NCBI GenBank assembly: GCA_001797745.1
Contig: MGQF01000050.1
Location: forward strand, 77,226 to 113,210
Length of the DNA: 35,985 nt
Direction: 5' to 3'
DNA from: Deltaproteobacteria bacterium RBG_13_52_11
GTDB taxonomy: Bacteria > Desulfobacterota > B13-G15 > RBG-16-54-18
Below are positions 2,473 through 29,299 of the stretch, piece after piece; within the stretch, counting starts at the first letter, position 1, and each line of letters opens with the position of its first letter. Below the pieces are notes generated by a model. That model was not told the origin of the DNA. It worked only from the letters and a program-made list of their open reading frames with translations, and made no database searches. Position numbers and translations under genes: made by a program.

Positions 2473-2484
2473 GCCAACAGAGGA

Positions 2485-9670: not shown

Positions 9671-9792
9671 ACATAATATTTTCGGAAAACCCCTTACAAA
9701 ATCTCAAGATAAAAGATTTGGCCGCTTTTCATTTCTTCCTTGTTGGGACGATGATCGTGGTCTTCTTAAATCTTGTAGCTTTTGCTATTAGC

Positions 9793-10764: not shown

Positions 10765-10771
10765 ATTTCTC

Positions 10772-11644: not shown

Positions 11645-11666
11645 CTCTACAATCTCCTAATAAATT

Positions 11667-12386: not shown

Positions 12387-12431
12387 TCCCTCGCCTCTCC
12401 ACCTTACGTTAAATCAGACCTATGTATATCA

Positions 12432-13148: not shown

Positions 13149-13204
13149 GCCTGCGCACCTCCCTTAGATAAAAAAATAGGGTGACAAATGTTCAAGGTTC
13201 ATTC

Positions 13205-13406: not shown

Positions 13407-13407
13407 T

Positions 13408-14739
13408 TTATTTGTTGTACGGAATGGGGAATAGCGGCTTGGCCGACTCCTTTATGAAGTCGTGCTTGGAGAAGACTACCGGGCATTCCCATACCCACGG
13501 TTTGTCAGTCTTCTGCCACTGGCCAAACACGAGCGGCCCCCGGCTAAAGTGGTTCTCATCAAACTTGACACGATGACCAATTGTCATCAAATCGGTTTCC
13601 GCCAGGGCGGCATTAACCTTCTCTCCGTTAAGTGTGCCAGCCCTTTTAATAGCGTCAATGAGAACCTGGACTGAGCGATAGCCTGGTCCAACACCTCTGT
13701 TTAATTGTTTCTTTGTCTCTTTAGACCATTTTTCAGCGAGCGACTGTGGGGTTGTGCCTCCAATACCTGGTGAATTGGCGAATGACGGATCCCACCATAT
13801 CTCACAACCGATGCCGAGTGGTATGTCACCACCCCAAGCTTTTATGTCTTCATAGAAAAGTGGCGCTCTGCCAATGGAGACCATCTTGGGCTTAAAGCCC
13901 TGCGTGGCACATTGTCTCAGCAGCGTCCCAACGAAGGGAGCGGGAGCATTACCCCAGAGTATTTCACACTTATAATCTTTCCACGCTTTTATGACAGACG
14001 TAAAGTCCGTCGTGTCCATAGGCGCTAGGCCGACCTTTTTTGCTACACCGCAGACATCATAGCCCATTTTCTTTAGGAAGCCGGGGAATAGCCCATACCA
14101 GCCAACCCCGTCGGGGTCATCGGACGCGAAGACAGCCACCTTCTTATTGGTCTTGTTGCCGTACAAGTCCAGCATGGCCTGCCAAGTATCCGTTATTGTG
14201 TATCCAGGTTTAGCTCGGAAATCTCCCGGTGGAGCCGGTATGACGATGGCAAACAGACCAGTGGCCCAGGTGTATTGCCAATGTCCTTCAACTGCCTGCC
14301 GCATACCCAACCACGGTTCCACAGGACCGGTTGAAGTAACGTATGGGATCTTAAACCTGTCGGCTACAGTAGATACGCCAGCGTGCATCGGCGGCGGTTC
14401 ATCACCTGATGCCAGGAAGTGTACCTTATCGTTAACAATCAAGGATTCGGCAAGAGTCCCTCCCTTTTGTGGGTCGCTCTCGGTATTAACGACCACAAGT
14501 TTGATGGGCAATTTACCGTTATACTCTTTTACAGGCACTCCACCTTCTTTGTTGATATCCTCGACAGCCGCTTTCATCCCAAATACGTAGCCCTCGCCGA
14601 AACCGGCATACATGCCGGTTAACGGAGCCGGTACGCCGATACGAATTTCTTCTTTTGGTCCCTTCTTGCACCCGCTGAAAATCAGCGCGCTTGCCAAAAC
14701 GATCATGAACGAAACTACAATAAACTTTTTCATTGTCAC
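13408..14739 (-). CDS. Liv/Peripla_BP_6-type ABC transporter substrate-binding lipoprotein
   Basis: 443 aa with a signal peptide and lipobox (LIFSGC). It is the first gene of the ABC array. SBPs of this family are known to bind amino acids, urea/amides or aromatic acids. Confidence 0.85.
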   Translation of the reverse strand: MTMKKFIVVSFMIVLASALIFSGCKKGPKEEIRIGVPAPLTGMYAGFGEGYVFGMKAAVEDINKEGGVPVKEYNGKLPIKLVVVNTESDPQKGGTLAESLIVNDKVHFLASGDEPPPMHAGVSTVADRFKIPYVTSTGPVEPWLGMRQAVEGHWQYTWATGLFAIVIPAPPGDFRAKPGYTITDTWQAMLDLYGNKTNKKVAVFASDDPDGVGWYGLFPGFLKKMGYDVCGVAKKVGLAPMDTTDFTSVIKAWKDYKCEILWGNAPAPFVGTLLRQCATQGFKPKMVSIGRAPLFYEDIKAWGGDIPLGIGCEIWWDPSFANSPGIGGTTPQSLAEKWSKETKKQLNRGVGPGYRSVQVLIDAIKRAGTLNGEKVNAALAETDLMTIGHRVKFDENHFSRGPLVFGQWQKTDKPWVWECPVVFSKHDFIKESAKPLFPIPYNK

Positions 14740-14973
14740 TACCTCCCTTCTAAAATTAAGAAATCTTATCTGCCTACTTCCTCACATGAGCATGGGCATA
14801 GGCATCACCTCCTTCTTCCTCAACTAAATTCGCGTTCAAGATTTATTTACTTAAGAACTCAATAATAGATTTAGCACTCCTTTAAACCCAGGTCCGCGGA
14901 CAAGACAAAAAAGCTGATCAGGAGATTTACAACACCGGCAACTTCACGACCAAAATCTTTGTTTGTCTTGTTC

Positions 14974-15915
14974 CTACGAGCCTCCGTGCTCCTTGGTCCA
15001 TTTCAGCAGATAATTCACCAATCCCTGCCTTAGGCTCGTAGCCCTTTCAGGGGGCCATTCCTGAAACCCCCGGCCGGTCTTTAAACCGAGATCACCTTTC
15101 TCAACTTTTTCTTTCAGTATAGGTGAGGGACCATGAGAGTCTTCAATGTGTTTCAGAACATAGTTATGAATGGCCAGGGTCAGATCAAGACCGGCCAGAT
15201 CGGCGTTTTCCATCGGGCCTAAAACCGGCAGCCTCAAACCAAAGCTGTTTTTTACGGCCTCATCGACCTCAGCAGGATCAGCAATCCCATTCTGGACAAT
15301 GGAGATCGCCTCTCGCCAGAGGGCATGTTGAAGCCTGTTTGCCAAAAATCCGGGCACATCCTTTTTTACCCGTACGGGTTTTTTCCCCACAGCCTTCATG
15401 AGGGCCATGGTTTTTTCCATGGTCTCTTCAGAGGTTTCCTTTGCCTTGACAACTTCTACCAGCGGGATCAGGTGGGGAGGATTCCAGAAATGGGTCCCGA
15501 CGATCCTCTCCCGACCTTTCGCTTTTTCTGCTATTTCTGTGGGGCTGATGACAGACGTGTTAGTAGCCAGAATTGCTTTCTCATGACATAATCTATCCAA
15601 TCTCTGGAAGAAATCCTGCTTCAATGCCAGATCCTCTCCAATAGCTTCTTCGACGAAATCCGCGTTGGAGACAGCCTCTTCAAAGTCGTTTGTCGTTTTG
15701 ATCAGTTTAATGGCTGGTTCAATATCTTCCTGGCGACCAATACCATTTTTTGCCATGAGTTCCAGATTGGCTCGAACCGTCTTCACGACCTGGGGTAATA
15801 CTTCAGGTCTGCGTGCCCAGATCGTTGTGTTATAGCCCTTCACGGCAAAGATCTGAGCGAGCCCCGGGCCCATCATCCCGGCGCCGAGGACAGTGATGTT
15901 CTTTATTTCTGACAT
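14974..15915 (-). CDS. 3-hydroxyacyl-CoA dehydrogenase-family (3HCDH) NAD(P)-dependent dehydrogenase; candidate (S)-3-hydroxy-5-oxohexanoate dehydrogenase
   Basis: 313 aa with the Rossmann motif VLGAGMMGPG and 3HCDH_N/C architecture (NPPHLIPLVEV). It sits next to a BKACE gene, as the 3HCDH-family beta-hydroxy-acid dehydrogenase does in carnitine catabolism. Confidence 0.75.
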   Translation of the reverse strand: MSEIKNITVLGAGMMGPGLAQIFAVKGYNTTIWARRPEVLPQVVKTVRANLELMAKNGIGRQEDIEPAIKLIKTTNDFEEAVSNADFVEEAIGEDLALKQDFFQRLDRLCHEKAILATNTSVISPTEIAEKAKGRERIVGTHFWNPPHLIPLVEVVKAKETSEETMEKTMALMKAVGKKPVRVKKDVPGFLANRLQHALWREAISIVQNGIADPAEVDEAVKNSFGLRLPVLGPMENADLAGLDLTLAIHNYVLKHIEDSHGPSPILKEKVEKGDLGLKTGRGFQEWPPERATSLRQGLVNYLLKWTKEHGGS

Positions 15916-15927
15916 ATTAATATCCTC

Positions 15928-16719
15928 CTACCCTGCGGTATAACCGCCGTCTGTGCAAATAATGGCTCCGGTCAAAAAGTCGGAGGCCCTTGAAGACAGA
16001 AAGATAACCGTCCCAATAAAATCCTCCGGCTCTCCCAACCTCCCGAGGGGGATTCGTTTGAGGAAATTCTTGTAAAATGCCTGATCATCAAACATCCATT
16101 GTGTCAAAGCCGTCCGAAATACCGTGGGCGCGATAGCGTTAACATTAATACCGTACTGGCCCCATTCGCACCCCAGTGATTTCGCTAAAAGATGGACAGC
16201 ACCTTTGGACGGGCTGTATCCGGTATAGTTGGCCATGCCCAACTCACCGCGCGCCGATCCCAAAAGGATCACCTTGCCGCCCTTTCCCTGTTTGATCATG
16301 ACCTTTCCGACTTCTTTACAAAAGAGCCATGTCCCCTTGACATTGGCATCCATGATCATATCCCATTCTTCCAGGGGCTGGTCGACGATGGGACCCGGCT
16401 TATTCACGCCAGCCGCCGTAATCAGAATGTCTATCCTGCCGAATTTATTAACCGTATCTTTGACTACTCTCTTGACATCTTCATATTCAATGGGTGAGCC
16501 TGCGGAATAGGCCGCGACACCACCCTCCTTCTCTATTTCTTTTACGAGGGGTTTAAGCTTTCCCTCGTCTCGGCCGGTCGCCATGACCTTTACACCGGCC
16601 ATTGCCAATGCCATGGCAGCGGCATGACCAAAACCACCAGTGGCACCCGTGATGAGGGCTACTTTCCCTGAGACATCAAATAAATCTTTTAGCAGGTCCA
16701 TTCCTTTTTTCATCGCCAT
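15928..16719 (-). CDS. Short-chain dehydrogenase/reductase; candidate phloroglucinol reductase
   Basis: 263 aa with TGATGGFG, NAAG-like TAAG, a catalytic Ser and YSPSK. The family assignment is firm; the substrate is inferred from gene context only. Confidence 0.7.
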   Translation of the reverse strand: MAMKKGMDLLKDLFDVSGKVALITGATGGFGHAAAMALAMAGVKVMATGRDEGKLKPLVKEIEKEGGVAAYSAGSPIEYEDVKRVVKDTVNKFGRIDILITAAGVNKPGPIVDQPLEEWDMIMDANVKGTWLFCKEVGKVMIKQGKGGKVILLGSARGELGMANYTGYSPSKGAVHLLAKSLGCEWGQYGINVNAIAPTVFRTALTQWMFDDQAFYKNFLKRIPLGRLGEPEDFIGTVIFLSSRASDFLTGAIICTDGGYTAG

Positions 16720-16776
16720 TTTTTTACTCCCTCCTTAGGCATCAGGTTTTAGCCTGTTCTCCACCTTACCCCGATC

Positions 16777-16791
16777 TATCCGTAACGGATA
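16777..16791. promoter_or_regulatory. Perfect palindrome TATCCGT-A-ACGGATA in the BKACE-SDR spacer
   Basis: Read directly. It lies in the 99-bp gap between the BKACE stop (16819) and the SDR start (16719). Confidence 0.3.
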
Positions 16792-16818
16792 CCGGCCATA
16801 ATCTATAGAATGGATGTC

Positions 16819-17742
16819 TTAATAATTAACTTTGTCAATGCCCTTAAGCTGAAGTATCTCCCTCGCTTCATCTTCGGTGGCCGGTTCATATCCGAGCTCG
16901 CGGATAATGCGGATGGCCTTCTCAACCTGTTCGGCGCTGCTCTTGGCCAGCACGCCTTTTTCAAGGTAGAGGTTGTCTTCCAGACCTACTCTCCAAAACC
17001 CGCCCTCAAGCACATTGATCACGCCCATGGGGAACTGGAACCTTCCGGCCGCACAAACAGACCATTTAAAGTCTTCACCCAGTAATTTTTTGGCTTCCCT
17101 GATCATGTAGAGCAGGTTGTCTCCGGTAGCAGGAATACCACCAAGGATACCCATGACAAACTGCAAGTAGATCGGTTTTTTGAGGTAGCCCTCTCTTATA
17201 AGCTGGTCAACGTTATTGATCTGTCCTACATCATAGATCTCAATCTCCGGCCGGGTATTCATTTCATTCATGGCCTTTAAGTAGATGTGTAGAGATGCAA
17301 AGTGATTTGAGAAGATAAAGCTCTCTGTCCCTTCAAGATAGGCCTTCTCCCAGGGATACTTGAACTCCTTGACCTTCTGCACCACCGGATACAAGGCAAA
17401 GTTGAGTGACCCGGCATTAAAAGTGGCCATCTCAGGCTTTAATGCGCTCACAACAGCGAGCCTCTCCTGCGGTGTCATGGTCGGACTTCCGCCGGTAGTG
17501 GGAGTTATCACTACCTTTGATTTGGCCTTTATGCCGCTCAAGATCTCCTTGAAGATTTCACCACTGGAAGAAGGAGAGCCGTCCTTAGGGTTCCTGGCGT
17601 GAACATGTACAACGGCAGCGCCCGCATTATGAGATCTCACCGCCTCGTCGATGATATGTTCCGTGCTGAATGGGAGATATTCGGACATTGATGGCGTATG
17701 AATAGCTCCTGTCAGAGCTGCGGTAATGATTACTTTAGACAT
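16819..17742 (-). CDS. BKACE (beta-keto acid cleavage enzyme, DUF849) family protein; candidate triacetate acetoacetate-lyase
   Basis: 307 aa. The N-terminus VIITAALTGAIHTPSMSEYLP and the overall TIM-barrel-type pattern are typical of 3-keto-5-aminohexanoate cleavage enzyme relatives. Confidence 0.8.
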   Translation of the reverse strand: MSKVIITAALTGAIHTPSMSEYLPFSTEHIIDEAVRSHNAGAAVVHVHARNPKDGSPSSSGEIFKEILSGIKAKSKVVITPTTGGSPTMTPQERLAVVSALKPEMATFNAGSLNFALYPVVQKVKEFKYPWEKAYLEGTESFIFSNHFASLHIYLKAMNEMNTRPEIEIYDVGQINNVDQLIREGYLKKPIYLQFVMGILGGIPATGDNLLYMIREAKKLLGEDFKWSVCAAGRFQFPMGVINVLEGGFWRVGLEDNLYLEKGVLAKSSAEQVEKAIRIIRELGYEPATEDEAREILQLKGIDKVNY

Positions 17743-17909
17743 TTCAATCCCTCCTTCATTGAATGTTATGAGATCAATAGCATTATCACCGATCCGCAGG
17801 CCTCATTGCCATCATACCAAAATGACCGTGTGCCGCATAGGTTTTTACATCCTTTAACTCGACTTTTTTTATAATCCTTGGCACCTACTAGTACAGGTAA
17901 AAAATCCTG

Positions 17910-18683
17910 CTATTGATCGCCTTCATCAACAATGGCAACAATCCGGACAATGGACCCATCGCCCTTCTCCCAGCGGATGGGGAAGCCGGCCAGGGTGACC
18001 CTCTTCCCCAGGACCTTGTCAATATCGCCGCCGACATTCTCGTAGCCCATGATGCCGTTACGCAGGAGCAGGTTATGGCACGGCTCCCATTCGGGAAAGT
18101 CTTCCAGCACATCACGCCCGGTCTCCTTTTTGTATTCCTCGCAGACATCCGGCCGTATCGGGTTCTTGCCGTGAACAGGGCCATGGGGGCCGATGGTGGT
18201 GGCGAGGGGATGATCCAGTGCCTGCTGGTCAACGCCGACGCACTTCACGCCCTTAGCGACGAACCACTCGCCCGCTTCTCGGTAGAGGCCGGGGGAGTAG
18301 CAGAAATACTTGGTGCTATCACCCCAATAATGGTGCCAGCCTGTATGAACTATCACCATGTCGCCCTTTTCAATTTTGGGCCTAGCCCTCTCCAGGTCTT
18401 CGGGCATAATCTTTTCCCACTTATTCTTCGGTATATCCACGACGACGCCGGTGCCATAGTACTTTTCCAGGGGGATATCGGCAGTGTACATACCGCCCTC
18501 AAAGACATGGGCCGGTGAATCGGCATGGGTCGTGCAGTGCATGGTGGTCGTGATGACCTGGGAGAGAACCCCAGATTTGGCATGATAATGCATGCGCTCA
18601 ATCTTGACATCGGCAAAATACGGCCACAGGGGTACTTTGTCACCAAAAGGATGGCTTAAATCATATAATTTTACTTTTCCCAC
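17910..18683 (-). CDS. Cyclase-family (kynurenine formamidase / isatin hydrolase-like) metal hydrolase; candidate dihydrophloroglucinol cyclohydrolase
   Basis: 257 aa. HCTTHADSPAH matches the HxGTHxDxPxH metal-binding motif of PF04199-type cyclases. It lies directly downstream of the IclR gene. Confidence 0.75.
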   Translation of the reverse strand: MGKVKLYDLSHPFGDKVPLWPYFADVKIERMHYHAKSGVLSQVITTTMHCTTHADSPAHVFEGGMYTADIPLEKYYGTGVVVDIPKNKWEKIMPEDLERARPKIEKGDMVIVHTGWHHYWGDSTKYFCYSPGLYREAGEWFVAKGVKCVGVDQQALDHPLATTIGPHGPVHGKNPIRPDVCEEYKKETGRDVLEDFPEWEPCHNLLLRNGIMGYENVGGDIDKVLGKRVTLAGFPIRWEKGDGSIVRIVAIVDEGDQ

Positions 18684-18736
18684 AGGTTCACCTCCTACTA
18701 GTTATATTACTCAGACCAACCCATCATATTTTGTAA

Positions 18737-19468
18737 TTATACATTATTATTATAATGGTAATGGAGTTGAGCCGAAATCTTTGTTGCAGTATCCTTCAAT
18801 GGAGAAACAATAGGTGAATCATTATCCCATGTAACCCTCGGAGAGGGTCCGGCAACTACAACAGCTGCCACCGGTTTTTCTTTATAGTTAAATATAGGGG
18901 CACCAACAGCATTAATACCAATGTCGATCTCCTCATTATCGAAAGAGAATCCTTGCCGCCTTATATCTTGTAACTGACGTTGAAACATCTTTGGATCCGT
19001 AATGGTATTCGGAGTAAAACGAGGCATTTGTCCATTGAGAAGGCTGTCCCTGACCTCAGGAGGAGAAAAAGCCAGTATGGCTTTGGCTCCGGCTGCTGCA
19101 TGGATCGGGAGCCTGTCTCCGATGGTGCCAGCAATACGGACCTGTTGAGGTCCCTCAGCAATGTAAGCCATGACTGTACTGTTGCCTACAAGCACTTCAA
19201 AAACAATAGTCTCTTTAAGTGTGCTCCGTAGATCATCAATATATGACTTTGCAATATAAACCAAATTAGTATTGAGAAATTGATTGACAGTCCATCCAAG
19301 ATTGGTAATGGACGGTCCAAGCATGAATTTTTTTGTCTGAGGATTCTGTTGGAGAAAGCCGTACCTCATGAGAATAAGGAGAATTCGAGAGACTGTTGCC
19401 TTATGAAAACCCAATTTCTTACTAATCTCAACGGTCCCCATTTCTTGATTGTATGGGGTAAAGGCCAA
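18737..19468 (-). CDS. IclR family transcriptional regulator (true start probably further upstream, up to 19510)
   Basis: HTH region EISKKLGFHKATVSRILLILMRYGFL plus a C-terminal IclR effector domain. The listed start is a TTG. The frame stays open for 14 more codons (IKKFNSIEKVIEIL) that look like the usual IclR N-terminus. That extension begins at an ATA (19508-19510) placed 6 nt after AGGAG. Confidence 0.85.
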   Translation of the reverse strand: MAFTPYNQEMGTVEISKKLGFHKATVSRILLILMRYGFLQQNPQTKKFMLGPSITNLGWTVNQFLNTNLVYIAKSYIDDLRSTLKETIVFEVLVGNSTVMAYIAEGPQQVRIAGTIGDRLPIHAAAGAKAILAFSPPEVRDSLLNGQMPRFTPNTITDPKMFQRQLQDIRRQGFSFDNEEIDIGINAVGAPIFNYKEKPVAAVVVAGPSPRVTWDNDSPIVSPLKDTATKISAQLHYHYNNNV

Positions 19469-20123: not shown

Positions 20124-20594
20124 ATGGGAAAGATTATCCATACATCCAAAATCACCATCACACGGGTTGAGGGCTCAACTCGCAAAGCCTTTGTCGAAGG
20201 ATTCAAAGAACCGATATTCTACGGTGTGCACGGAGGAATTAAGCGATTTTACGGGATTGAGCCGAAAGAAGAACATCCAGCTACCCTTGACCACATCATA
20301 GGGGGTGTGGGAGGGTGAATGATGGGAACCTTGGCTAGGTTTTTGGCCGAGAAAGATATTCCGACCACCGAAGATCGTTACTGTGCCCGTGTGGAAGGCG
20401 ACATTGAAGATGTTAATGGTATCCTCAAAATCACCCGGATAAAAGTCAATTATAATCTTAAGATTCCTCCAGGGAAGGTAAATGATGCCCGCCAGGCATT
20501 CGAGCAGTATCTTCCTTACTGCCCTGGCGCCCAAAGTGTCATCGGCTCTATCCATATCGAGCATGCTTTAAAAATAGAAGAAGAAAAGCTATGA
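20124..20594 (+). CDS. OsmC/Ohr-family peroxiredoxin-like protein with an in-frame UGA (candidate selenocysteine) at the peroxidatic Cys position
   Basis: ORFs 20124-20318 and 20319-20594 are contiguous and in the same frame, separated only by the TGA at 20316-20318. The joined 156-aa product reads ...HPATLDHIIGGVGG[U]MMGTLARFL... and ...YLPYCPGAQSV.... These match the two conserved Cys motifs of OsmC. The RBS GGAGAGG lies before the ATG. Confidence 0.65.
20324..20344 (+). promoter_or_regulatory. Candidate bacterial SECIS hairpin
   Basis: GGGAACCU-UGGCU-AGGUUUUU: five Watson-Crick pairs extended by G-U pairs, with a G-containing apical loop about 17 nt after the UGA. This is within the spacing range usual for bacterial SECIS elements. 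Confidence 0.4.
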
Positions 20595-21094: not shown

Positions 21095-21134
21095 ACATTT
21101 ATGAATGAAACTAGAACTGAAAGGGGGTTCTTAC

Positions 21135-21650
21135 ATGGGAAGAAAAAAAGCATATGGAGATCGTAGTAAAGGATTGTTAAATACGGTAAAAGGCGTCAGC
21201 AGCTTTCTTAATATCATTGCAGGGGTCGCTCTCACATTCCTTATGTGTCTCACCATCGCCGACGTTATCTTGAGATTTTTCAGAAGGCCTATTGTTGGTA
21301 CGTACGAACTGGTGGCCTTTTCAGGGGCCGTGGGGATCGGTTTCGCCCTCCCTCTTACCTCCTGGGCGAGGCAGCATATCTTTGTTGATTTTGTGATTAT
21401 GAAGTTTTCACGGAAGGTGAAAGATGCCTTCAACGTTGCTACGAGATGTTTGGTGATAGCGCTATTGTTACTGGTTAGTTGGAACATGTTCAAGTTTGGA
21501 CAGACTTTGCAGAATGCAGGGGAGGTTTCCCCCACGTTACAGATACCCTTTTATCCTATTGCTTACGCAGTGGGGGTTTGCTTCTTCATTCTGTGCCTGG
21601 TGTTCGTGTGCGATATTATAAAAATATCAGGAGGTGAATACGATGTATGA
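21135..21650 (+). CDS. dctQ: TRAP transporter small permease subunit (second copy)
   Basis: DctQ-like protein of about 171 aa with four TM segments. The ATG at 21135 follows AAAGGGGG; the listed 21105 start is less likely. Its stop overlaps the dctM2 start. Confidence 0.8.
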   Translation: MGRKKAYGDRSKGLLNTVKGVSSFLNIIAGVALTFLMCLTIADVILRFFRRPIVGTYELVAFSGAVGIGFALPLTSWARQHIFVDFVIMKFSRKVKDAFNVATRCLVIALLLLVSWNMFKFGQTLQNAGEVSPTLQIPFYPIAYAVGVCFFILCLVFVCDIIKISGGEYDV

Positions 21651-22944
21651 GGTCATGATAGGACTTATTGGCCTGGCAGTATTGTTAGTCTTGTTCCTTA
21701 CAGGGATTGAGTTAGGATTTGCGATGGCATTGATTGGTTTCCTCGGATTCTCTATCATTGTATCCACAAAGGCTGCGTTGAACCTAATCGCCAAGGATTT
21801 TTTTGATGTCTTTGCATCGTACGGGTTCACCGTCATACCCCTCTTTATCCTGATGGGTCAGGTTGCATTCAATGCGGGGATTGCGAGGAGGCTGTTCAAC
21901 ACTGCCTTTAAATTTATTGGCCATGTTCCCGGAGGCTTGGCCATGGCCACGGTGGCAGGTGCAACGGCCTTCAAGGCCATCTGCGGCTCATCACCTGCCA
22001 CGGCTGCCACCTTTGCCAGTGTGGCCGTGCCTGAGATGGATCGATATAAGTATAGCAAGAAGCTATCCACGGGGATTGTGGCTACAGTAGGAACCCTTGG
22101 GGTCCTTATCCCGCCGAGTGTCACCTTGATCGTATTCGGCATCATCACAGAACTGTCCATTGGTAAATTGTTTCTGGCTGGGATCATTCCAGGGCTGATC
22201 ATCGCCTTCTTTTTTATCTGTATCATCTATGTTTGGTGTAAGATCAACCCGAAGTTAGGCCCTAAGGGCAAAAAATCAACGTGGAAGGAAAGGATAGCTT
22301 CCCTTCCAGAGTTTGCAGTGGTCGTTGTTATCTTCGTGCTGATGATATGGGGACTGATGAAGGGGATATTTACCCCAACCGAGGCAGGGAGCGTTGGGAC
22401 CGGATTAGTCCTCCTTGTGTCTGTTGTAAGAAGGGATATCGATTTCAAGGGGTTCCTCAAATCAATCGCAGAATCTTTGCGTACTGCTTGTATGGTCCTG
22501 ACGCTCATCGCAGGTTCTACCATCCTGGGCCATTTTCTCGCCGTGACGAAGCTCCCCATGATTGCGGCCGATTGGGTTGTGGCGCTTCCTCTGAACAAAT
22601 TCATTATTATGATCATAATCAGTTTTATCTATCAAACAGGGGGATCTTTTATTGACGATCTGGCTTTCATGGTGCTTGCCACACCGATCTTTTATCCTGT
22701 GATCATCAAACTGGGTTTTGATCCTATATGGTTCGGCATGATCATTGCGATTACGGTTATGATTGGGGTTGTTATTCCACCGGTGGCGATCAATGTCTTT
22801 GTAGTAAAGAATATCACCAAGGTGCCATTTAGCGTGATTTACAGCGGCGTCTATCCCTTTTTGATCAGTCTTGTGGTTGCCGCCGTGCTGTTGTTCTTCT
22901 TCCCACAAATCGCCCTTTGGCTCCCCAATCTAATGATGAAGTAG
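21643..22944 (+). CDS. dctM: TRAP transporter large permease subunit (second copy, no adjacent dctP)
   Basis: Paralog of the 2807-4105 product, sharing IPPS, FTPTEAGSVG and GFDPIWFGM. The ATG at 21643 lies 8 nt after AGGAGG and forms an ATGTATGA overlap with dctQ2. Confidence 0.9.
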   Translation: MYEVMIGLIGLAVLLVLFLTGIELGFAMALIGFLGFSIIVSTKAALNLIAKDFFDVFASYGFTVIPLFILMGQVAFNAGIARRLFNTAFKFIGHVPGGLAMATVAGATAFKAICGSSPATAATFASVAVPEMDRYKYSKKLSTGIVATVGTLGVLIPPSVTLIVFGIITELSIGKLFLAGIIPGLIIAFFFICIIYVWCKINPKLGPKGKKSTWKERIASLPEFAVVVVIFVLMIWGLMKGIFTPTEAGSVGTGLVLLVSVVRRDIDFKGFLKSIAESLRTACMVLTLIAGSTILGHFLAVTKLPMIAADWVVALPLNKFIIMIIISFIYQTGGSFIDDLAFMVLATPIFYPVIIKLGFDPIWFGMIIAITVMIGVVIPPVAINVFVVKNITKVPFSVIYSGVYPFLISLVVAAVLLFFFPQIALWLPNLMMK

Positions 22945-22951
22945 CAATGGA

Positions 22952-22986
22952 GGGGGAAGGGATGCCCTTTATTCCTTCCCCCTTTT
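22952..22986 (+). terminator. Rho-independent terminator after dctM2
   Basis: GGGGGAAGG-gatgccctttatt-CCTTCCCCC followed by TTTT. The stem and 3' flank closely resemble the hairpin at 21060. Confidence 0.6.
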
Positions 22987-23080
22987 CATTCATGGGATGT
23001 GAAGGAGTAATAGATCACCATATTATTAAACCGAAAGAATTATATTCGATCGGAATATCTTAAGAACGGGGAGTATGCAA

Positions 23081-23212
23081 ATGGATAACTGGACGTTTGG
23101 CATTTCTATGATCGTGGTGGGCATGGGAGGAACACTCTTGACACTTTGGATCTTGAGCCTCATCATGGGCGTTTTGAAAAAGGTTTTCCCTTATAAAGAA
23201 GATAAAAATTAA
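23081..23212 (+). CDS. OadG/GcdD-like small membrane subunit of an Na+-translocating decarboxylase
   Basis: This 43-aa ORF is absent from the supplied track because it is shorter than 60 aa. Its sequence is MDNWTFGISMIVVGMGGTLLTLWILSLIMGVLKKVFPYKEDKN, a single TM helix of the OAD_gamma type. GGGGAG is its RBS, and it sits directly upstream of the beta subunit. Confidence 0.55.
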   Translation: MDNWTFGISMIVVGMGGTLLTLWILSLIMGVLKKVFPYKEDKN

Positions 23213-23233
23213 TAATAAAGGAGATTAAGAGAA

Positions 23234-24373
23234 ATGTTCGAAGCGATTGTAGGCGGATTGAACGGACTTGTTAGTGGATTTGCCCATCTCCATTGGTCTA
23301 ATCCAATCATGATTGTGGTTGGCCTTGTTCTCCTCTATCTGGGGATCAAAAAGAACTTCGAACCCTTACTCCTCGTCCCCATTGGGTTTGGGTGTATCTT
23401 GGTGAATATCCCCTTAGCAGGGCTGATGGAGAAAGGGGGATTTCTCAAGGTCATCTACGATGCAGGGATTATGACGGAGCTGTTCCCGCTCCTCATCTTT
23501 GTGGGTATCGGTGCCATGACCGACTTTGGTCCCCTTCTGGAGAATCCGAAGATATTTCTTCTCGGGGCTGCAGGACAATTTGGGATTTTTCTCACCTTGG
23601 TCTTAGCACTGGCCTTAGGTTTTACTCAATTAGAAGCTGTCTCCATTGGAATCATCGGTGCCTGTGACGGGCCGACGGCGATCTATGTCACCTCTCAATA
23701 TGCGCCACATCTCTTGGGTGCGGTCTCGGTGGCTGCGTATTCGTATATGTCGCTGGTACCTGTCTTCCAGCCTCCTATCATGAAGCTCTTAACTACTAAG
23801 GAAGAGAGGATGATCAATATGGGGGAGGTGAGAAAATCGGTTTCCAAGACGACCAAGATTGCATTTCCTCTGGTTGTTACCGTCATTGGCGGCCTCATCG
23901 CACCTAAGGGGTTACCGTTGTTGGGGACGATCATGCTGGGTAATCTGATGAAGGAGTGCGGGGCCGTGAGCCGGTTGACCAAGGCCTCTGAAAATGAGAT
24001 CGCCAACATCGTCACCCTTCTTTTGGGAATCGCTATCGGAGCCACCATGGATGGCAGGGTCTTTTTAACACACCAGACCCTTATTATCTTGGCGCTTGGT
24101 TTCCTGGCCATTTGTCTTGACACGGCATGTGGTGTGTTATTCGGAAAAGCAATGAAGGTTATGTCAGGCGGGAAGATTAATCCTCTTATTGGAGCCGCCG
24201 GCATCTCAGCCTATCCCATGTCGGCGAGAGTGGTCCAGAAAGAAGGGCAGAAGTATAATCCCAAGAATTTCCTCCTCATGCATGCCATGGGAGCCAACAC
24301 TGGTGGCCAGGTCGGCTCTGTGATGGCCGCTGCGGTTATGCTTTCGGTGCTCAAGGGTATGGGGATTATTTAA
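23234..24373 (+). CDS. Na+-translocating decarboxylase beta subunit (OadB/GcdB/MmdB family)
   Basis: 379 aa. The N-terminal pattern NPIMIVVGLVLLYLGIKKNFEPLLLVPIGFGCILVNIP is diagnostic of the OAD_beta family. Confidence 0.9.
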   Translation: MFEAIVGGLNGLVSGFAHLHWSNPIMIVVGLVLLYLGIKKNFEPLLLVPIGFGCILVNIPLAGLMEKGGFLKVIYDAGIMTELFPLLIFVGIGAMTDFGPLLENPKIFLLGAAGQFGIFLTLVLALALGFTQLEAVSIGIIGACDGPTAIYVTSQYAPHLLGAVSVAAYSYMSLVPVFQPPIMKLLTTKEERMINMGEVRKSVSKTTKIAFPLVVTVIGGLIAPKGLPLLGTIMLGNLMKECGAVSRLTKASENEIANIVTLLLGIAIGATMDGRVFLTHQTLIILALGFLAICLDTACGVLFGKAMKVMSGGKINPLIGAAGISAYPMSARVVQKEGQKYNPKNFLLMHAMGANTGGQVGSVMAAAVMLSVLKGMGII

Positions 24374-24430
24374 ATTATCGTCATCACTTCAGAGCCACGA
24401 GCTCCCTATCAGGGGAGCTAAACATTTTTA

Positions 24431-24472: not shown

Positions 24473-24690
24473 GTTAGACAACCTTGCCTGACAAAAACAA
24501 CTCTCGATGTCTCTTGCCCCAGCATTAAAACCCTCAAACCAGAGGGTCATACACAACCTCCCAGTAGGTTACCCTGCGTGGTAGGCTTGACTCTTGCAAT
24601 CGGGATCACTATCATTCTTTATGGCTTATTGTGGGGTTTTACTATCTACCGTTCCTGATGTTACGTTGAGATACATATGAAAGATAAAAA

Positions 24691-25470
24691 ATGGCCTTTG
24701 CGTTAGGTATGGATATCGGTTCATATTTCTCAAAAGGGATCATCCTCGGTGATCGCAAGCCCGTGGCGTCCTCTGTGAGCCCCTCAGGAGGAGATTACCG
24801 GGCAACTGCTGAGAGGATACGCGAAGCGCTCCTTTCCGAGGCAGGAATCAACCAAAAGGATATCGTCTATACGATTGCCACAGGATACGGATCAAAACAG
24901 GTGCCCTTTGCAGACGCACTCAAGACGGACATCGTCTGCATTGCCAAGGGAATAGCCTCGTTAGACCCCTCCGTACGAACGGCCATCGACGTGGGAGATC
25001 TCTACACCAAGGTTGTTCTCACGGATGACAACGGAAGCGTGCACAACTTCTTACTGAGCGGAAAGTGCGCAGGTGGCAGCGGCAGGATCTTGCAAGTGAT
25101 TGCCAAGGTGTTGCAGGTTAAGGTTGAAGAGATCGGTGCTCTGTCCCTCAAGTCCCGAAAGAAGGTAGACTTTAACACCGGATGCGCCGTCTTTGCGGAA
25201 TCTGAGGCCATTTCCCGAATCGCTGAGGGGACCACCAAGGAGGATTTGTTGGCGGGCCTTCACCGAGCCCTTGCAGCCCAGATCAATAGCTTGGCAGAGA
25301 GGTTAGGTGTTGAAAAGGAGCTGGCCCTGGTGGGCGGCGGGGCGAGAGATGCAGGTCTTGTCCAGGCGATGAAGGACATCAGAGGCCACGATATCATCGT
25401 GCCGCCGGAACCCCATTTCACGGCCGCCCTGGGTGCAGCAATCATTGCCATGGAAAACTCAAGACCTTGA
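24691..25470 (+). CDS. BcrAD/BadFG/HgdC-family ASKHA ATPase (activase / reductase ATP-binding subunit), divergent copy
   Basis: 259 aa. The two cluster-ligand Cys contexts are present (SGKCAGGSG and NTGCAVFAESE). The phosphate motifs are atypical: GMDIGSYFSK and DVGDLYTK replace GIDxGST.TK and DIGGQD.K. Confidence 0.85.
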   Translation: MAFALGMDIGSYFSKGIILGDRKPVASSVSPSGGDYRATAERIREALLSEAGINQKDIVYTIATGYGSKQVPFADALKTDIVCIAKGIASLDPSVRTAIDVGDLYTKVVLTDDNGSVHNFLLSGKCAGGSGRILQVIAKVLQVKVEEIGALSLKSRKKVDFNTGCAVFAESEAISRIAEGTTKEDLLAGLHRALAAQINSLAERLGVEKELALVGGGARDAGLVQAMKDIRGHDIIVPPEPHFTAALGAAIIAMENSRP

Positions 25471-25848
25471 ACCGCTCAACGTCCATGTCAGTTGCTGTGC
25501 CGCTTTGGAGGACATAAAAACGCCTTCCATAACCTCATTATCTTTTTTCGGTGAATAGGTAAAATGCGTGCCCCACGCCGCTCCATCAGCCTCACGTGCT
25601 AAAAGACGCTATTTGTTTTGTGGAAAGATCTTGCAAATACTCATTGCACTAGAAATCTTTCTGACCTGATGTAGTTGCATCGTCGGCAGATGTTCTTATT
25701 GATCTTTGAGACCAAATAATGTATTTTGCTCGCAAAGGGCTGTTGCAGTCATAGGGGGGGACCTCGGCATTCCGCTCTCTAAAAGGCGTGTGGATTTCCG
25801 TAAGGCATGTTCAGCCAACGGTTAGATTTTGAAAAAGGAGAAGGGCTG

Positions 25849-27009
25849 ATGAATGGTACAGCGGGTAACGTTTTGTCCACGGTAGAAAGGCATTACAAAG
25901 ACTACGGGCTCAGGGCAAAGGAACTGGGCAATGAAGGGAAAAAGGTGATCGGCTATATTTGTTCCTTTGTCCCCCTCGAGATGATCACCGCAGCAGGATG
26001 TATCCCTTTTCGGATGAGGGGAGATATCCATGAGCCCATCACGAAGGGAGATACGCTCCTGGAGACCATTGTATGCCCTTTTATCCGCAGCTGTTTTGAT
26101 CTGTCGGTGAAAGGTACATATGACTTTCTCTCCGGTATGGTCATCCCTCACGCCTGTGACAGCATGGTCAGGAGCTACAGCGTCTGGAGCTATTCTCTCA
26201 AATTTCCTTACTTCCATTTCGTCAATATTCCCACTGTCTGCAACGAATCTTCCCTTGAATTCTTTAACGCAGAATTAGACACGTTCAGGAAAAGCCTGGA
26301 AGATTTAGTGGGAAAAAAGATTACAGACGATGATCTGGTTGAGGCCATTCGGTTGCACAATGAAAACAGAGATAAGGCACGAGCCCTCTACGAATTTAGA
26401 AAGGAAGATCCGCCACTCATCTCTGGGACAGAGGTGACAATGGTGCTCACTGTTGGATCAAGCTTACCCATCCTTGAATCCAACGCATTATTTGACGAAG
26501 TTTTGATAGAAATTGGTCAAAGAAAGAAATCCCCTCTTACGAAAGGTCCCCGGATACTCATAGACGGCGCCTGTGTGGATAACTTCGAATTGGTCAAGAT
26601 CGTTGAAGAGAGTGGAGGCAATGTGGTGATTGATACTCTTTGCAACGGTACCAGAGATTACTTCCCCCATACGGACGTTGGGGAGGATCCCGTAAAAGCA
26701 CTGGGTCGTCGGTATATGGAGAAGATCAATTGTCCCAAGACCTACCGGAAAAACAAAACAGACACCTTCGAAGGGGATAGTACGGACCGATTCGGTGATA
26801 TCGGAGCGTATGCCAAGGAGTTCAAGGCCGACGGCGCGATCCTCTATGTGTACAAGTACTGCGATCCATTTGGGTTTGAGGTCCCCGCCAGGAAGGCATA
26901 CTACGAATCCATCAATGTCCCGGTCCTCCACCTGGAGGATGTATATTCGGCAGGGACCATCGGCCAACTCAAAACAAGGATCCAGGCATTTCTGGAGATG
27001 ATTGGGTAG
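25849..27009 (+). CDS. BcrC/BadD/HgdB-family subunit of a benzoyl-CoA reductase / 2-hydroxyacyl-CoA dehydratase-type enzyme
   Basis: 386 aa from the ATG at 25849, with RBS AAAGGAG. VIGYICSFVPLEMITAAGCIPFRMRG and a C-terminal ADGAILYVYKYCDPF ... VPVLHLEDVYS are typical of PF06050 proteins. Confidence 0.85.
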   Translation: MNGTAGNVLSTVERHYKDYGLRAKELGNEGKKVIGYICSFVPLEMITAAGCIPFRMRGDIHEPITKGDTLLETIVCPFIRSCFDLSVKGTYDFLSGMVIPHACDSMVRSYSVWSYSLKFPYFHFVNIPTVCNESSLEFFNAELDTFRKSLEDLVGKKITDDDLVEAIRLHNENRDKARALYEFRKEDPPLISGTEVTMVLTVGSSLPILESNALFDEVLIEIGQRKKSPLTKGPRILIDGACVDNFELVKIVEESGGNVVIDTLCNGTRDYFPHTDVGEDPVKALGRRYMEKINCPKTYRKNKTDTFEGDSTDRFGDIGAYAKEFKADGAILYVYKYCDPFGFEVPARKAYYESINVPVLHLEDVYSAGTIGQLKTRIQAFLEMIG

Positions 27010-27040
27010 TGCGGATTTTGAGACAAGGAGGATTGAGGTA

Positions 27041-28444
27041 ATGGCTGAGGAACACAAAGACAAAAAGCACGAAAAGAGGAGGACGGCAACCCAGGCGGCT
27101 GCCTTCATCACCCCAATGGTCAAGGAATTTTTTAAGGATACCCTCCGGACACGGGCAGAGGGAAAACAGAAATTGGCCTATACCTTTATCTGCTGCCACC
27201 ACGAGGAGATCCTCCGGGCCATGGATATACTGCCCCTATGGACCGAGAATTTTGCCGGTATCTGCGGGGCAAAGAGAGACGCCGAGCGATTCCTCCAGAG
27301 GGCCGAATCCTTGGGCCTCTCACGTTCCCTCTGTACCTATGCCCTGTGCGGGATCGGCTTTGACCAGTGGCGAGAAGAACTGGGCGAGATGCCTCCGGAT
27401 GCCCCATGGGGTGGACAGGCGAGACCCGATTTTATGATATCCAGCGGGCAGATCCTCTGTGATCCGAGGTCCAAGTGGTACCAGGCCTCTCAGCAGTTTA
27501 TGCCGGATGTCCCGATCTACAACATAGACCTTCCCTATCCGCTCTACGATCAGAAAAGAGATCACCGAAAGGTGTGGGGCTACTATCACAAATATATCGT
27601 CGCACAGTTGCGCGGTCTCGTGGCGTTCTGTGAGGAGCAGACCAGTAAGAAGATGGATTATGATCGCTTAAGCGAGCTCGTTGACCTGACCGATCGAACC
27701 TGGAACCTGATCCATGAAACCTATGAGCTGCGACGGGCGGTGCCGACTCCCATGGGGACCGGCGATGCGATGAATACCATGGTGCCAATAAACTTTTGGA
27801 TGGCCACCCAGAAGGCCTATGATTTCTTTATCGAACTTAAGAAGGAATTAGAGGAAAAGATCGCCAAGGGAGAAGGTGAGGTCGAAGACGAACGGTATCG
27901 GCTTATGTGGGGAGGCGGATTGCCCTCCTGGTTTGCCCTGAACGATTTCAATTACTTCAACGGCAAGGGCGCCTCTTTTCCTGTTGAGACAACCTATCGC
28001 TCGGTCGTGCCCCTCTATGAGATGGATATCCCGAAAACCAAAGACCCCATCGAGCATATTGCGTGGCGCTGGCTCTGGTACTGGACCTTCTGGTATGAAA
28101 AGGCCAGGAAACGACCGGAATCCGAGCCCGATGTGGAGCGCTTAATTACCTGGATCGAAGACTACAAGATCGATGGCATCGTTATGCATGAGGCATTTTC
28201 ATGCCGGACCTGGCACGTGGGCCTCATCTGGCAACTGCATCAATTGGGTAAGATTTACAAACCCATCCCTGTCTTAACGCTCGGAAAGGATGGAAAAAAG
28301 GAAAAGACGTACCGGGGGCTTCCTTCCCTGATTCTGGAAAGTGATATCATAGACATCACCTCGTATTCAGAGGTGGACACCAGAAACAAGATCGATGCCT
28401 TCATCGAAACCCTGGAGTCCATCCGGCAGAGCAAGGCAGCGTAG
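27041..28444 (+). CDS. BcrB/BadE/HgdA-family subunit of the same enzyme
   Basis: 467 aa from the ATG at 27041, with RBS AAGGAGG. Family motifs: LAYTFICCHHEEILRAMDILPLW, IDGIVMHEAFSCRTW and PSLILESDIIDITSYSEVDTRNKIDAFIETL. Confidence 0.85.
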   Translation: MAEEHKDKKHEKRRTATQAAAFITPMVKEFFKDTLRTRAEGKQKLAYTFICCHHEEILRAMDILPLWTENFAGICGAKRDAERFLQRAESLGLSRSLCTYALCGIGFDQWREELGEMPPDAPWGGQARPDFMISSGQILCDPRSKWYQASQQFMPDVPIYNIDLPYPLYDQKRDHRKVWGYYHKYIVAQLRGLVAFCEEQTSKKMDYDRLSELVDLTDRTWNLIHETYELRRAVPTPMGTGDAMNTMVPINFWMATQKAYDFFIELKKELEEKIAKGEGEVEDERYRLMWGGGLPSWFALNDFNYFNGKGASFPVETTYRSVVPLYEMDIPKTKDPIEHIAWRWLWYWTFWYEKARKRPESEPDVERLITWIEDYKIDGIVMHEAFSCRTWHVGLIWQLHQLGKIYKPIPVLTLGKDGKKEKTYRGLPSLILESDIIDITSYSEVDTRNKIDAFIETLESIRQSKAA

Positions 28445-28456
28445 TTCCGGGGTCTA

Positions 28457-29299
28457 ATGACAGCATATTTTGCAGGCATTGATGTCGGTTCTACCATGAC
28501 CAAAGCGGTGATCCTGGGCAACGGGATCATCGCCTCAGTTATTGGCCCTACTGGACCGGAGCAGCGCAGGCTCGCCAACAAGGTCATGGAAGAGGCCTTG
28601 AACAAGGCCGGTATCCCCTTTGGGTCCATCACCTACATCGTCTCCACCGGCTACGGAAGAATTAACGTCCCTTTTGCCGACAAGCAGGTCACGGAAATAA
28701 CGTGCCATGCCAAGGGTATCTCCAGTCTCTTCCCGGAGGCCAAGACTATCATTGACATCGGGGGACAGGATTGCAAGGCAATCAAGATTAATGCCGGCGG
28801 CAGACCGAATGATTTTATCATGAACGACAAGTGTGCTGCTGGCAGCGGCAGATTTATCGAGGTGATTGCCGATACCCTGGGTATAAGGCTGGACGAGGTT
28901 GGAGGGCTTTCTTTACAAGCTAAGAATCCCGCAAAGATAAGCAACATCTGCACCATATGGGCCCAGCAGGAGGTGGCGACCAGGTTATCAGAAGGCGTGC
29001 CTATTCCCGACCTGCTTGCTGGGGTCCATCAATCCCTGGCGGATAGGATATCCAGGATGGTCAATCGACTCCGGGTAGAAGAGGCAATTGTCCTGACCGG
29101 CGGTGGCGGCAAGAACAAGGGCTTGGTTAAGGCCCTTTCCGAGCAATTGGGCCATGAAATTCTGGTGCCAGAGGAACCATTGATCACCGGAGCCCTCGGC
29201 GCTGCCTTGGTGGGAAGAGAGATTGCGGAAAATGCTCGCAAGGAGAATATGCTATTAGAGACAAAAGAACGCATTTTGGAGGAAATACAGATTTTGTAG
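28457..29299 (+). CDS. BcrAD/BadFG/HgdC-family ASKHA ATPase, canonical copy
   Basis: 280 aa with GIDVGSTMTKAV, DIGGQDCKAI, NDKCAAGSGRF, a second Cys in SNICTIWAQQE, and LTGGGGKNKG. Confidence 0.88.
   Translation: MTAYFAGIDVGSTMTKAVILGNGIIASVIGPTGPEQRRLANKVMEEALNKAGIPFGSITYIVSTGYGRINVPFADKQVTEITCHAKGISSLFPEAKTIIDIGGQDCKAIKINAGGRPNDFIMNDKCAAGSGRFIEVIADTLGIRLDEVGGLSLQAKNPAKISNICTIWAQQEVATRLSEGVPIPDLLAGVHQSLADRISRMVNRLRVEEAIVLTGGGGKNKGLVKALSEQLGHEILVPEEPLITGALGAALVGREIAENARKENMLLETKERILEEIQIL

Follow-up and report, generated by a model that had tools for sequence, protein, structure and literature searches.

An abundant, mislabelled four-gene operon of the benzoyl-CoA reductase/2-hydroxyacyl-CoA dehydratase superfamily in Desulfobacterota

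The four-gene operon

We analyzed a 35,985-nt stretch of DNA from Deltaproteobacteria bacterium RBG_13_52_11 (GenBank assembly GCA_001797745.1, contig MGQF01000050.1, positions 77,226 to 113,210 of the forward strand), referred to below as the window. At 24691-29299, on the plus strand, the window contains four genes that constitute a real, well-defined operon of the benzoyl-CoA reductase (BCR)/2-hydroxyacyl-CoA dehydratase (HAD) radical-enzyme superfamily. The first gene encodes an HgdC/BcrAD-type ASKHA ATPase (ATPase1; 24691-25470, 259 aa; PF01869, 5e-49; TIGR00241, 206 bits). The second encodes an N/C-like subunit (small subunit; 25849-27009, 386 aa; PF06050, 8e-80), predicted to store electrons in an [8Fe-9S] double cubane. 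The third encodes an O/B-like subunit (large subunit; 27041-28444, 467 aa; PF06050, 3e-49), predicted to be catalytic and to carry a [4Fe-4S] cluster. The fourth encodes a canonical HgdC/BzdQ-type ATPase (ATPase2; 28457-29299, 280 aa; PF01869, 3e-60; TIGR00241, 272 bits). Two PF06050 (HGD-D) subunits together with PF01869 (BcrAD_BadFG) ATPases that have two bridging-cluster Cys contexts are the features that define the superfamily. An earlier note on this DNA had described the order, sizes and strand of the four genes and a 378-bp gap after the first; open reading frame (ORF) listing and domain scans confirm all of these, and the gap is exactly 378 bp (25471-25848).

The N/C-like ORF opens at 25807 and the O/B-like ORF at 27002. 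A start at 25849 is favored by the 386-aa homologues and a GGAG ribosome-binding site, and a start at 27041 by the 467-aa homologues and a GGAG-type ribosome-binding site. Both revised starts fit the lengths of hundreds of homologues. Two candidate signals lie between the preceding oadB-like gene and ATPase1 on the plus strand. A terminator-like hairpin (24400-24419; 8-bp stem with five GC pairs and a T-rich tail), recognized by its match to the consensus alone, likely marks the left edge of the transcription unit. A putative σ70-like promoter (24587-24615; TTGACT-17-TATCAT, 10 of 12 matches) follows it. A σ54 promoter was also considered and rejected: the naphthalene degrader NaphS2 and one further relative (L095) have σ54 activators upstream of the operon, yet no −24/−12 site was found between 24420 and 24690, 5' of ATPase1 in the window.

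Alignment with two sister loci (L096 and L097), where the corresponding spacer is 93 bp, reveals that the 378-bp spacer contains an insertion of ~285 nt at roughly 25535-25815, which is missing in both sister loci. An imperfect 17-nt inverted repeat (25510-25526 and 25783-25799) brackets it. No second copy of the insertion was found, Rfam gives no match, and the folding z-score of 0.27 indicates no excess folding energy; the insertion may therefore be a decayed small mobile element. An RNA element in the spacer was rejected on the same Rfam and folding results, and because the sister loci lack the inserted stretch that accounts for the extra length.

Conserved gene order

We collected ~96 related loci; an exact-peptide genome scan gave six, and an alignment-based scan of metagenome contigs gave more. 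The order ATPase1-N-O-ATPase2 is found in about 95% of them. Specifically, an ATPase1-like gene lies 5' of N in 63 of 67 testable loci and an ATPase2-like gene lies 3' of O in 54 of 56, and the two positions are never swapped. This order is unlike bcrCBAD, bzdNOPQ, mbdONQP, thnBCDE, and hgdCAB. The earlier assignment of the operon to the class I BCR architecture stands with respect to the two non-identical ATPases, the heterodimer, and the six-Cys set, but not with respect to gene order, since the family has a fixed order of its own.

Family placement and distribution

Hidden Markov model (HMM) and PDB scores served as a surrogate for a phylogeny with BcrB/C, BadD/E, HgdA/B, FldB/C, and LcdA/B. 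The curated models were TIGR03190/03191/03192 (Bzd), TIGR02259-02263 (Bcr), NF052455 (HadB) and NF052456 (HadC) for the dehydratases, and NF040772 (cutoff 350) for the double-cubane cluster proteins (DCCP). Every curated Bzd, Bcr, Had, and DCCP model scores the operon far below its cutoff. Judged by these scores, the operon lies outside the characterized Bzd, Bcr, Had, and DCCP families, in line with the earlier note, which assigned no definite substrate.

A library of 50%-identity representatives contains 1,081 relatives of the large subunit at E ≤ 1e-3. The top representative (420 aa) is 60% identical, in an alignment limited to residues 11-357; full-length representatives follow at 48% and 47% identity, and then at no more than 40%. 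The 150 representatives listed all score at least 120 bits, well over any solved enzyme, and 60 of them likewise fail every curated model. A profile of this wider clade ranks HadB (286 bits) slightly above BzdO (257 bits) and MbdO (243 bits), and the clade thus appears to branch between the known reductases and the known dehydratases, inside neither.

The family is large. Databases contain more than 2,300 homologues of the small subunit, and the best 120 are 386-aa proteins with 76-83% identity, plus one at 97%. The large subunit is the more conserved of the two, with 72-86% identity among homologues and 92% mean column identity across loci, and one of its 90%-identity clusters comprises 1,747 sequences. 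The sources are wetland, lake, aquifer, and marine sediments. The named hosts are Desulfobacterota of the sulfate-reducer kind, namely metagenome-assembled genomes (MAGs) of Desulfatiglandales, Desulfobacterales, and Desulfobacteraceae, and the cultured naphthalene degrader NaphS2, whose large subunit is 78% identical.

In the databases these genes are labelled 'benzoyl-CoA reductase subunit B/C' or '2-hydroxyacyl-CoA dehydratase'. No published description of the clade was found in the literature searched under bzdN/bcrC, MbdO, and 2-hydroxyacyl-CoA dehydratase for Deltaproteobacteria/Desulfobacterota. Strain BzS1 has an Hgd-like six-gene cluster, possibly of this clade, that was undetected in benzene- or toluene-grown cells (PMC13416013). 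The operon represents a distinct and abundant clade with its own gene order, active-site signature, and degenerate ATPase partner, the genes of which are already in the databases under the wrong names.

The small subunit

In BzdN, Cys36, Cys73, Cys100, Cys263, Cys293, and Cys327 bind an [8Fe-9S] double cubane (PMC11971306). All six pair with Cys residues of the 386-aa subunit in a HMMER alignment to 8S02_B. The corresponding predicted ligands, Cys38, Cys76, Cys103, Cys265, Cys295, and Cys338, are invariant in 16 homologues. We predict from this alignment that the 386-aa subunit carries an [8Fe-9S] double cubane, a cluster to which, in a reductase, the storage of two electrons has been assigned (PMC11971306). 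BzdN is also the nearest solved structure (155 bits), and the match to MbdN is weak (61 bits). HadC, the partner subunit of a dehydratase, has Cys at only four of the six positions in the alignment and carries a [4Fe-5S] cluster.

Among the NCBIfam models, the small subunit scores 220 bits with DCCP (cutoff 350), 167 with BzdN (cutoff 454), 149 with HadC (cutoff 700), and 141 with BcrC (cutoff 421). The top rank of the DCCP model brings up a different reading, namely that the operon encodes an ATP-dependent reductase akin to DCCP, whose substrate would be a small molecule without CoA, with the double cubane as the active site and the large subunit as an accessory. DCCP and its reductase DCCP-R (PDB 6ENO, 7YYL) resemble the operon products in the six [8Fe-9S] ligand Cys and in the ATP-dependent HgdC-type partner. 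Such a role would also suit a genomic context that is highly variable, often among housekeeping genes, and never consistently linked to pathway genes.

However, 220 bits is below the cutoff, and the spacing in the small subunit, C-X37-C-X26-C-X161-C-X29-C-X42-C, lacks the seventh Cys and does not follow the DCCP motif C-X19-C-X18/19-C-X29-C-X166-170-C-X32-34-C-X32-C. DCCPs are homodimers that are served by one homodimeric ATPase and act on small-molecule substrates, whereas the operon encodes a fixed heterodimer in which the six Cys are differently spaced and the partner is a CoA-type catalytic subunit. In that partner, which is conserved even better than the small subunit, the catalytic Glu, the three-Cys cluster, and both thioester Tyr are retained, and acyl-CoA ligases are frequent neighbors of the operon. 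We consider a DCCP-like enzyme quite improbable.

The large subunit and its active site

The residues around the benzoyl-CoA site are known for BzdO. Cys95, Cys128, and Cys380 are ligands of the catalytic [4Fe-4S]-OH2 cluster, Glu65 and His131 are located at the water ligand, Tyr97, Tyr298, and Gln274 bind the thioester oxygen, and Trp46, Leu302, and Leu383 surround the ring (PMC11971306). Our comparison of this pocket with the 467-aa subunit is by sequence alignment only. The three cluster ligands are kept (Cys98, Cys140, and Cys388), as are the catalytic Glu (Glu69) and the two Tyr (Tyr100 and Tyr319). Other than that, the pocket is changed. Specifically, Ser44 is replaced by Ile50, Trp46 by Cys52, His131 by Arg143, Gln274 by Leu294, Glu381-Gly382 by Arg389-Thr390, and Leu302 by Val/Ala at 322-323. 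Cys52 is a one-residue insertion exactly where BzdO has its Trp46 insertion, and the position is that of the first double-cubane ligand in BzdN.

Six residues of the large subunit are clade-specific: Cys52, Cys75, Cys103, Asp141, Arg143, and Arg389. Cys52, Cys75, and Cys103 are extra invariant Cys of the tight family, while Cys75, Asp141, Arg143, and Arg389 are common in the wider clade too. The aligned pocket is more polar and thiol-rich than that of BzdO, with Cys52, His53/54, Asp141, and Arg143.

The best solved match of the large subunit is MbdO (77 bits), a subunit of the 3-methylbenzoyl-CoA reductase MbdONQP from Thauera chlorobenzoica (PDB 9G87, 9GAI), followed by BzdO (69 bits) and HadB (56 bits). 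MbdO and the large subunit have in common a Ser-Cys-Arg-Thr motif at the third cluster ligand. The NCBIfam scores are 88.8 bits for HadB (cutoff 750), 80.7 for BzdO (cutoff 449), and 59 for BcrB (cutoff 487). An AlphaFold model of the large subunit was built from database homologues in a shallow alignment (72-86% identity) and has a pLDDT of 62, with the cluster-binding loops below 50. Because of this low confidence, the model was used for fold-level matches alone. Foldseek places the predicted fold on BzdO, MbdO, and HadB with TM scores of 0.60-0.66 (0.65-0.66 for MbdO).

The replaced pocket bears on another reading, an ordinary class I BCR of a fourth sequence type, with the remaining pathway encoded elsewhere in the genome. 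The subunit composition and the cluster ligands are as in BzdNOPQ, an acyl-CoA ligase and an ABC transporter lie 5' of the operon in many relatives, and in L096 an acyl-CoA dehydrogenase together with OadB could catalyze the glutaryl-CoA and glutaconyl-CoA steps of a lower pathway. Low identity alone is insufficient to exclude an ordinary BCR, because the accepted BCR types share only ~24-26% identity (PMC11971306). However, the residues that form the BzdO benzoyl pocket are replaced by Ile50, Cys52, Arg143, Leu294, and Arg389-Thr390, the Bzd and Bcr model scores are far under their cutoffs, and genes of the dienoyl-CoA pathway occur in no neighborhood. NaphS2-type and related Desulfobacterales, moreover, use class II BamB for benzoyl-CoA, and the comparable Hgd-like cluster of strain BzS1, if it is of this clade, points the same way by going undetected on benzene or toluene (PMC13416013). 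An ordinary BCR is improbable.

The two ATPases

ATPase1 and ATPase2 are only 41% identical, and hence are different proteins. Both have Cys126 and Cys165, in the contexts KCAGGSG/KCAAGSG and GCAVFAE/ICTIWAQ, and these residues align with the [4Fe-4S] cluster ligands of HgdC, HadI, and MbdQ; the earlier note had recognized both contexts. Among solved proteins, ATPase1 matches HadI (204 bits), HgdC (176 bits), MbdQ (170 bits), and MbdP (134 bits), and ATPase2 matches HadI (243 bits) and MbdQ (231 bits). The curated scores are 131 and 183 for BzdQ (cutoff 380), the latter for ATPase2, 121-152 for BcrA (cutoff 578), and 108-142 for BcrD (cutoff 313).

The phosphate-2 motif of ATPase1 is degenerate. 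It reads DVGDLYTK, whereas ATPase2 (DIGGQD) and all solved relatives have DIGGQ(D/T)xK. The phosphate-1 and adenosine motifs of ATPase1 depart from the norm as well. The Gly-Asp-Leu-Tyr motif is invariant across 63 upstream paralogues. We infer from these motifs that the pair forms an asymmetric dimer, in which a single ATP site would be functional. In the Mbd enzyme, MbdQ resembles ATPase2, and MbdP shares with ATPase1 a departure from the canonical ATPase motifs. ATPase1 differs from its Mbd counterpart in lacking GGQ(D/T) altogether, and both ATPases are more HadI/Q-like than P-like; as noted above, the small-subunit match to MbdN is weak, and the gene order is different.

Proposed function

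We propose, with a probability of roughly 45%, that the operon encodes an ATP-dependent acyl-CoA reductase of a new type, which is class I (Bzd/Mbd)-like but does not act on benzoyl-CoA. A BCR-like reductase is favored because the parts retained are those by which the BzdNO work accounts for the two-electron, ATP-driven reduction of a CoA thioester (PMC11971306). Specifically, BzdNOPQ of Azoarcus/Aromatoleum (PDB 8S02; PMC11971306) has, like the operon, a heterodimer of a ~380-aa six-Cys subunit and a ~450-aa three-Cys [4Fe-4S] subunit, a catalytic Glu, two thioester Tyr, and two different HgdC-type ATPases. Two distinct ATPases fixed around N-O resemble the heterodimeric P/Q or A/D pairs of BCRs, and not the single homodimeric activator of dehydratases. 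The two systems differ in gene order (N-O-P-Q versus ATPase-N-O-ATPase), in sequence (identity of ~20% for O and roughly one third for N, estimated from the alignment), in that the hosts of the operon are strict anaerobes, and in that genes for ferredoxin or a BzdV-type donor are not present.

There is a precedent for such chemistry in these hosts. Strictly anaerobic Desulfobacterota use an ATP-dependent class I-type reductase, Thn, for tetrahydronaphthoyl-CoA (PMC12016498). The Thn genes differ from the operon in being Bzd-type, in N-O-P-Q order, and part of a 22-gene beta-oxidation-like operon with ferredoxin. The NaphS2 orthologue of the operon is a separate locus from the Thn genes, beside a σ54 two-component system.

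A working mechanism can be outlined. The four gene products would form one heterotetrameric enzyme of the BCR/HAD superfamily, in which ATPase1 and ATPase2 heterodimerize around a bridging [4Fe-4S] cluster, each protomer contributing its Cys126 and Cys165. Hydrolysis of ATP, which would probably take place mostly in ATPase2, where the site is canonical, would push low-potential electrons, drawn from the cellular ferredoxin pool, into the double cubane of the 386-aa subunit. From this [8Fe-9S] cluster the electrons would then move to the three-Cys [4Fe-4S] cluster of the 467-aa subunit. The acyl-CoA thioester would be gripped by the two Tyr and reduced by two electrons, with Glu69 as the proton donor. 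Because the pocket appears more polar and thiol-rich, the substrate may be a carboxylic acid that resists reduction, for instance a substituted aromatic or an alicyclic one, with a CoA ligase encoded separately for its activation.

Several observations weigh against this proposal, which is drawn from sequence. The closest solved relative of both ATPases is the dehydratase activator HadI, the large subunit is about equally distant from the dehydratase HadB and from BzdO/MbdO, and HadB is the highest match of the wider-clade profile. No ferredoxin or dedicated electron-donor gene lies beside the operon in any locus with gene calls, and no dienoyl-CoA hydratase, dehydrogenase, or ring hydrolase occurs in the window or in the ~96 related loci. 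Stoichiometric use of ATP is costly for strict anaerobes (PMC11971306). Finally, in four loci (L018, L019, L098, and L099) N and O are intact but one or both flanking ATPases are missing; the ATPases may be encoded elsewhere there, or another activator may be borrowed.

Some of these points would fit a 2-hydroxyacyl-CoA dehydratase with a built-in activator pair. The most likely form would be a (R)-2-hydroxyglutaryl-CoA type, whose glutaconyl-CoA product would pass to a Na+-translocating biotin decarboxylase; the enzyme would recycle its electron and use ATP catalytically, a mode that fits strict anaerobes and makes a dedicated ferredoxin unnecessary. HadB heads both the wider-clade profile and the NCBIfam list of the large subunit, and the ATPases are nearest HadI and HgdC. 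The known dehydratases HadBC/HadI (2-hydroxyisocaproyl-CoA dehydratase) and HgdAB/HgdC (PDB 3O3M, 4EHT, 1HUX) share the fold and the three-Cys catalytic cluster with the operon products.

The genes around the operon also offer points for such a hydroxyglutarate-type route. In the window, a plus-strand DctQ-DctM-OadG-OadB unit (21105-24373), assigned by family matches, precedes the operon. It contains an OadG-related small subunit (23075-23212, 45 aa; NCBIfam 'OadG-related small transporter subunit') and an OadB-like Na+-decarboxylase beta subunit (23234-24373; family match). In NaphS2 (L092; ADZZ01000749.1, 8014-16917) and a near-identical relative (L094; 7660-14424), a σ54 two-component system or other sensor kinases lie 5' of the operon, and an MmdA-like carboxyltransferase (767 bits) and a biotin carrier (BCCP) lie just 3' of it. 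Beyond the carboxyltransferase there is a xanthine-dehydrogenase-family Mo enzyme and, in L092, hydantoinase A/B. In a third lineage (P0161), a GlcD/GlcF-like FAD/FeS 2-hydroxyacid dehydrogenase and an MBL-fold gene lie just 5' of the operon. TRAP and Liv-type transporters and CoA ligases, for their part, would suit the uptake and activation of (hydroxy)dicarboxylates.

However, the full six-Cys double-cubane set is kept here and is lost in known dehydratases, as HadC illustrates. A single homodimeric activator serves the known dehydratases, usually with a CoA-transferase gene alongside, whereas this operon has two different ATPases at fixed positions and no CoA-transferase gene. Decarboxylase parts adjoin the operon in only two lineages among the ~96 loci. 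The DctQM-OadG-OadB unit is found beside the operon only in the window and in the sister lineage L096/L097 (large subunit 86% identical), and in the window it is probably separate from the enzyme, with the terminator-like hairpin intervening. The window lacks both a carboxyltransferase gene and a gene for a biotin carrier, and the DctQM pair comes without DctP. The same four genes stand together in L096, so they may encode an assembly of the transporter type and not a classical decarboxylase. A D-lactate dehydrogenase, an enzyme common in sulfate reducers, would account equally well for the GlcD/GlcF-type pair. The emphasis that the earlier note put on the local neighbors finds little support, with the exception of the decarboxylase hint that it took from the gcdB-like neighbor; the MmdA-like and BCCP genes of NaphS2 and L094 and the GlcD/GlcF pair of the third lineage keep the dehydratase idea in play. 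On balance we regard a dehydratase as a serious but less likely rival, and an acyl-CoA reductase of a new type remains our preferred reading.

A broader formulation is possible but tentative. The clade may constitute a fourth type, specific to Desulfobacterota, of ATP-driven double-cubane/[4Fe-4S] enzymes, whose chemistry has so far been linked to no gene. Of its asymmetric pair of ATPases, only one protomer would hydrolyze ATP. Two kinds of chemistry are conceivable for it. One is the reductive dehydroxylation, deamination, or dearomatization of substituted aryl-CoAs in strict anaerobes, with 3-hydroxybenzoyl-, gentisyl-, protocatechuyl-, 4-aminobenzoyl-, or para-alkylbenzoyl-CoA as candidate substrates. 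The other is that of a double-cubane dehydratase as the first enzyme of a hydroxyglutarate-type route that is linked to a decarboxylase pumping Na+.

The residue-level comparison justifies neither the label 'benzoyl-CoA reductase' nor the label '2-hydroxyacyl-CoA dehydratase', and because of these database labels metagenomes may be misread as encoding class I benzoyl-CoA reduction or amino-acid fermentation. The abundance and conservation of the clade suggest an important step of anaerobic carbon turnover. The predicted combination of a BzdN-like double cubane, a remodeled active site, and an asymmetric ATPase pair would extend the design range of the BCR/HAD superfamily into strict anaerobes, hosts in which ATP-coupled reductions have been thought to be avoided. 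Because NaphS2 is cultured and carries the operon, it provides a direct experimental entry point.

Genomic neighborhood

The neighbors listed in the earlier note (DctQM, OadB with a small subunit, a Sec-OsmC gene, and a divergent phloroglucinol cluster) are all correct, as is its observation that the usual companions are missing. Among the annotated ORFs of the window there is neither a ferredoxin nor an aryl-CoA ligase, nor any hydratase or hydrolase of the crotonase type, and the sole CoA ligase, an acetoacetate-CoA ligase (923 bits), is on the minus strand. The operon is accordingly an orphan in the window, as claimed, but the family is not: an acyl-CoA ligase lies 5' of the operon in 18 of 48 testable loci, often together with a Liv-type ABC transporter. 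In the freshwater lineage, this upstream ligase is either a generic 527-aa FadD-like protein or a 433-aa PaaK-like protein (549 bits; cutoff 646).

The freshwater lineage also has a c3/ResB/HU/HDAC block 3' of the operon. This block was rejected as a functional partner and read as lineage synteny, since the window, NaphS2, and other lineages do not have it. Genes for xanthine-dehydrogenase-family Mo enzymes, a family that includes 4-hydroxybenzoyl-CoA reductase, lie near the operon in L003/L049, L089, and the NaphS2-type loci L092 and L094. These genes and the upstream acyl-CoA ligases count in favor of the reductase reading. In further loci, the operon lies among cell-division or other housekeeping genes.

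An MBL-fold/ODP-like gene was observed at two places. In a Desulfatiglandales MAG (L093), a gene of this kind (~310 aa; 7430-8371) lies between ATPase1 and N; in the P0161 locus, which belongs to another lineage, it lies directly 5' of ATPase1 (6918-7841). The product may be an accessory, e.g., a thioesterase or an oxygen-protection protein.

The minus strand of the window encodes a complete phloroglucinol degradation set (7636-19468), divergent from the operon and composed of an IclR regulator, DPGC, BKACE/TAL, SDR/PGR, and TfD. DPGC belongs to the cyclase family and TfD is of the 3-hydroxyacyl-CoA-dehydrogenase type; BKACE/TAL scores 404 bits with the model for 3,5-dioxohexanoate:acetyl-CoA transferase (cutoff 430). 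These genes match the four enzymes of the published pathway (PMC10470551). A Liv-type ABC transporter and the acetoacetate-CoA ligase come after the phloroglucinol genes. Farther along, also on the minus strand, genes at 1341-7223 encode an ACMSD-family amidohydrolase_2 (351 aa, no NCBIfam match), a complete TRAP transporter (DctP/DctQ/DctM), and a TetR regulator; they may constitute a non-oxidative hydroxybenzoate decarboxylase module that feeds the phloroglucinol pathway.

With a complete phloroglucinol set, an ACMSD-type amidohydrolase, and TRAP systems so near, the operon could be tied to polyphenol breakdown, e.g., by reducing or dehydroxylating a polyphenol-derived aryl-CoA for phloroglucinol degradation, and the polar active site would suit hydroxylated rings. 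However, the adjacency is unique to the window. Orthologues of PGR, DPGC, and TAL adjoin the operon in none of the other ~96 loci, and L096 has an acyl-CoA dehydrogenase and an ABC transporter where the window has Sec-OsmC and the phloroglucinol genes. The two clusters are divergent and ~5 kb apart, with Sec-OsmC in between. The phloroglucinol route, moreover, is complete with four enzymes and NADPH, and needs no ATP-driven reductase (PMC10470551). The suggestion that the phloroglucinol cluster informs the substrate is therefore not supported, and we consider a polyphenol-linked role very improbable. BKACE genes beside the operon in L051 and L057 were also considered as a phloroglucinol link and were rejected because they are only 39% identical to the TAL of the window. 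The neighboring genes of the window, in sum, give little reliable clue to the substrate.

An OsmC-like gene (20124-20594, plus strand) lies between the phloroglucinol set and the DctQM-OadG-OadB unit. It contains an in-frame TGA codon at 20316-20318, in the context IGGVGG-U-MMGT, which is consistent with a selenocysteine at the peroxidatic position.

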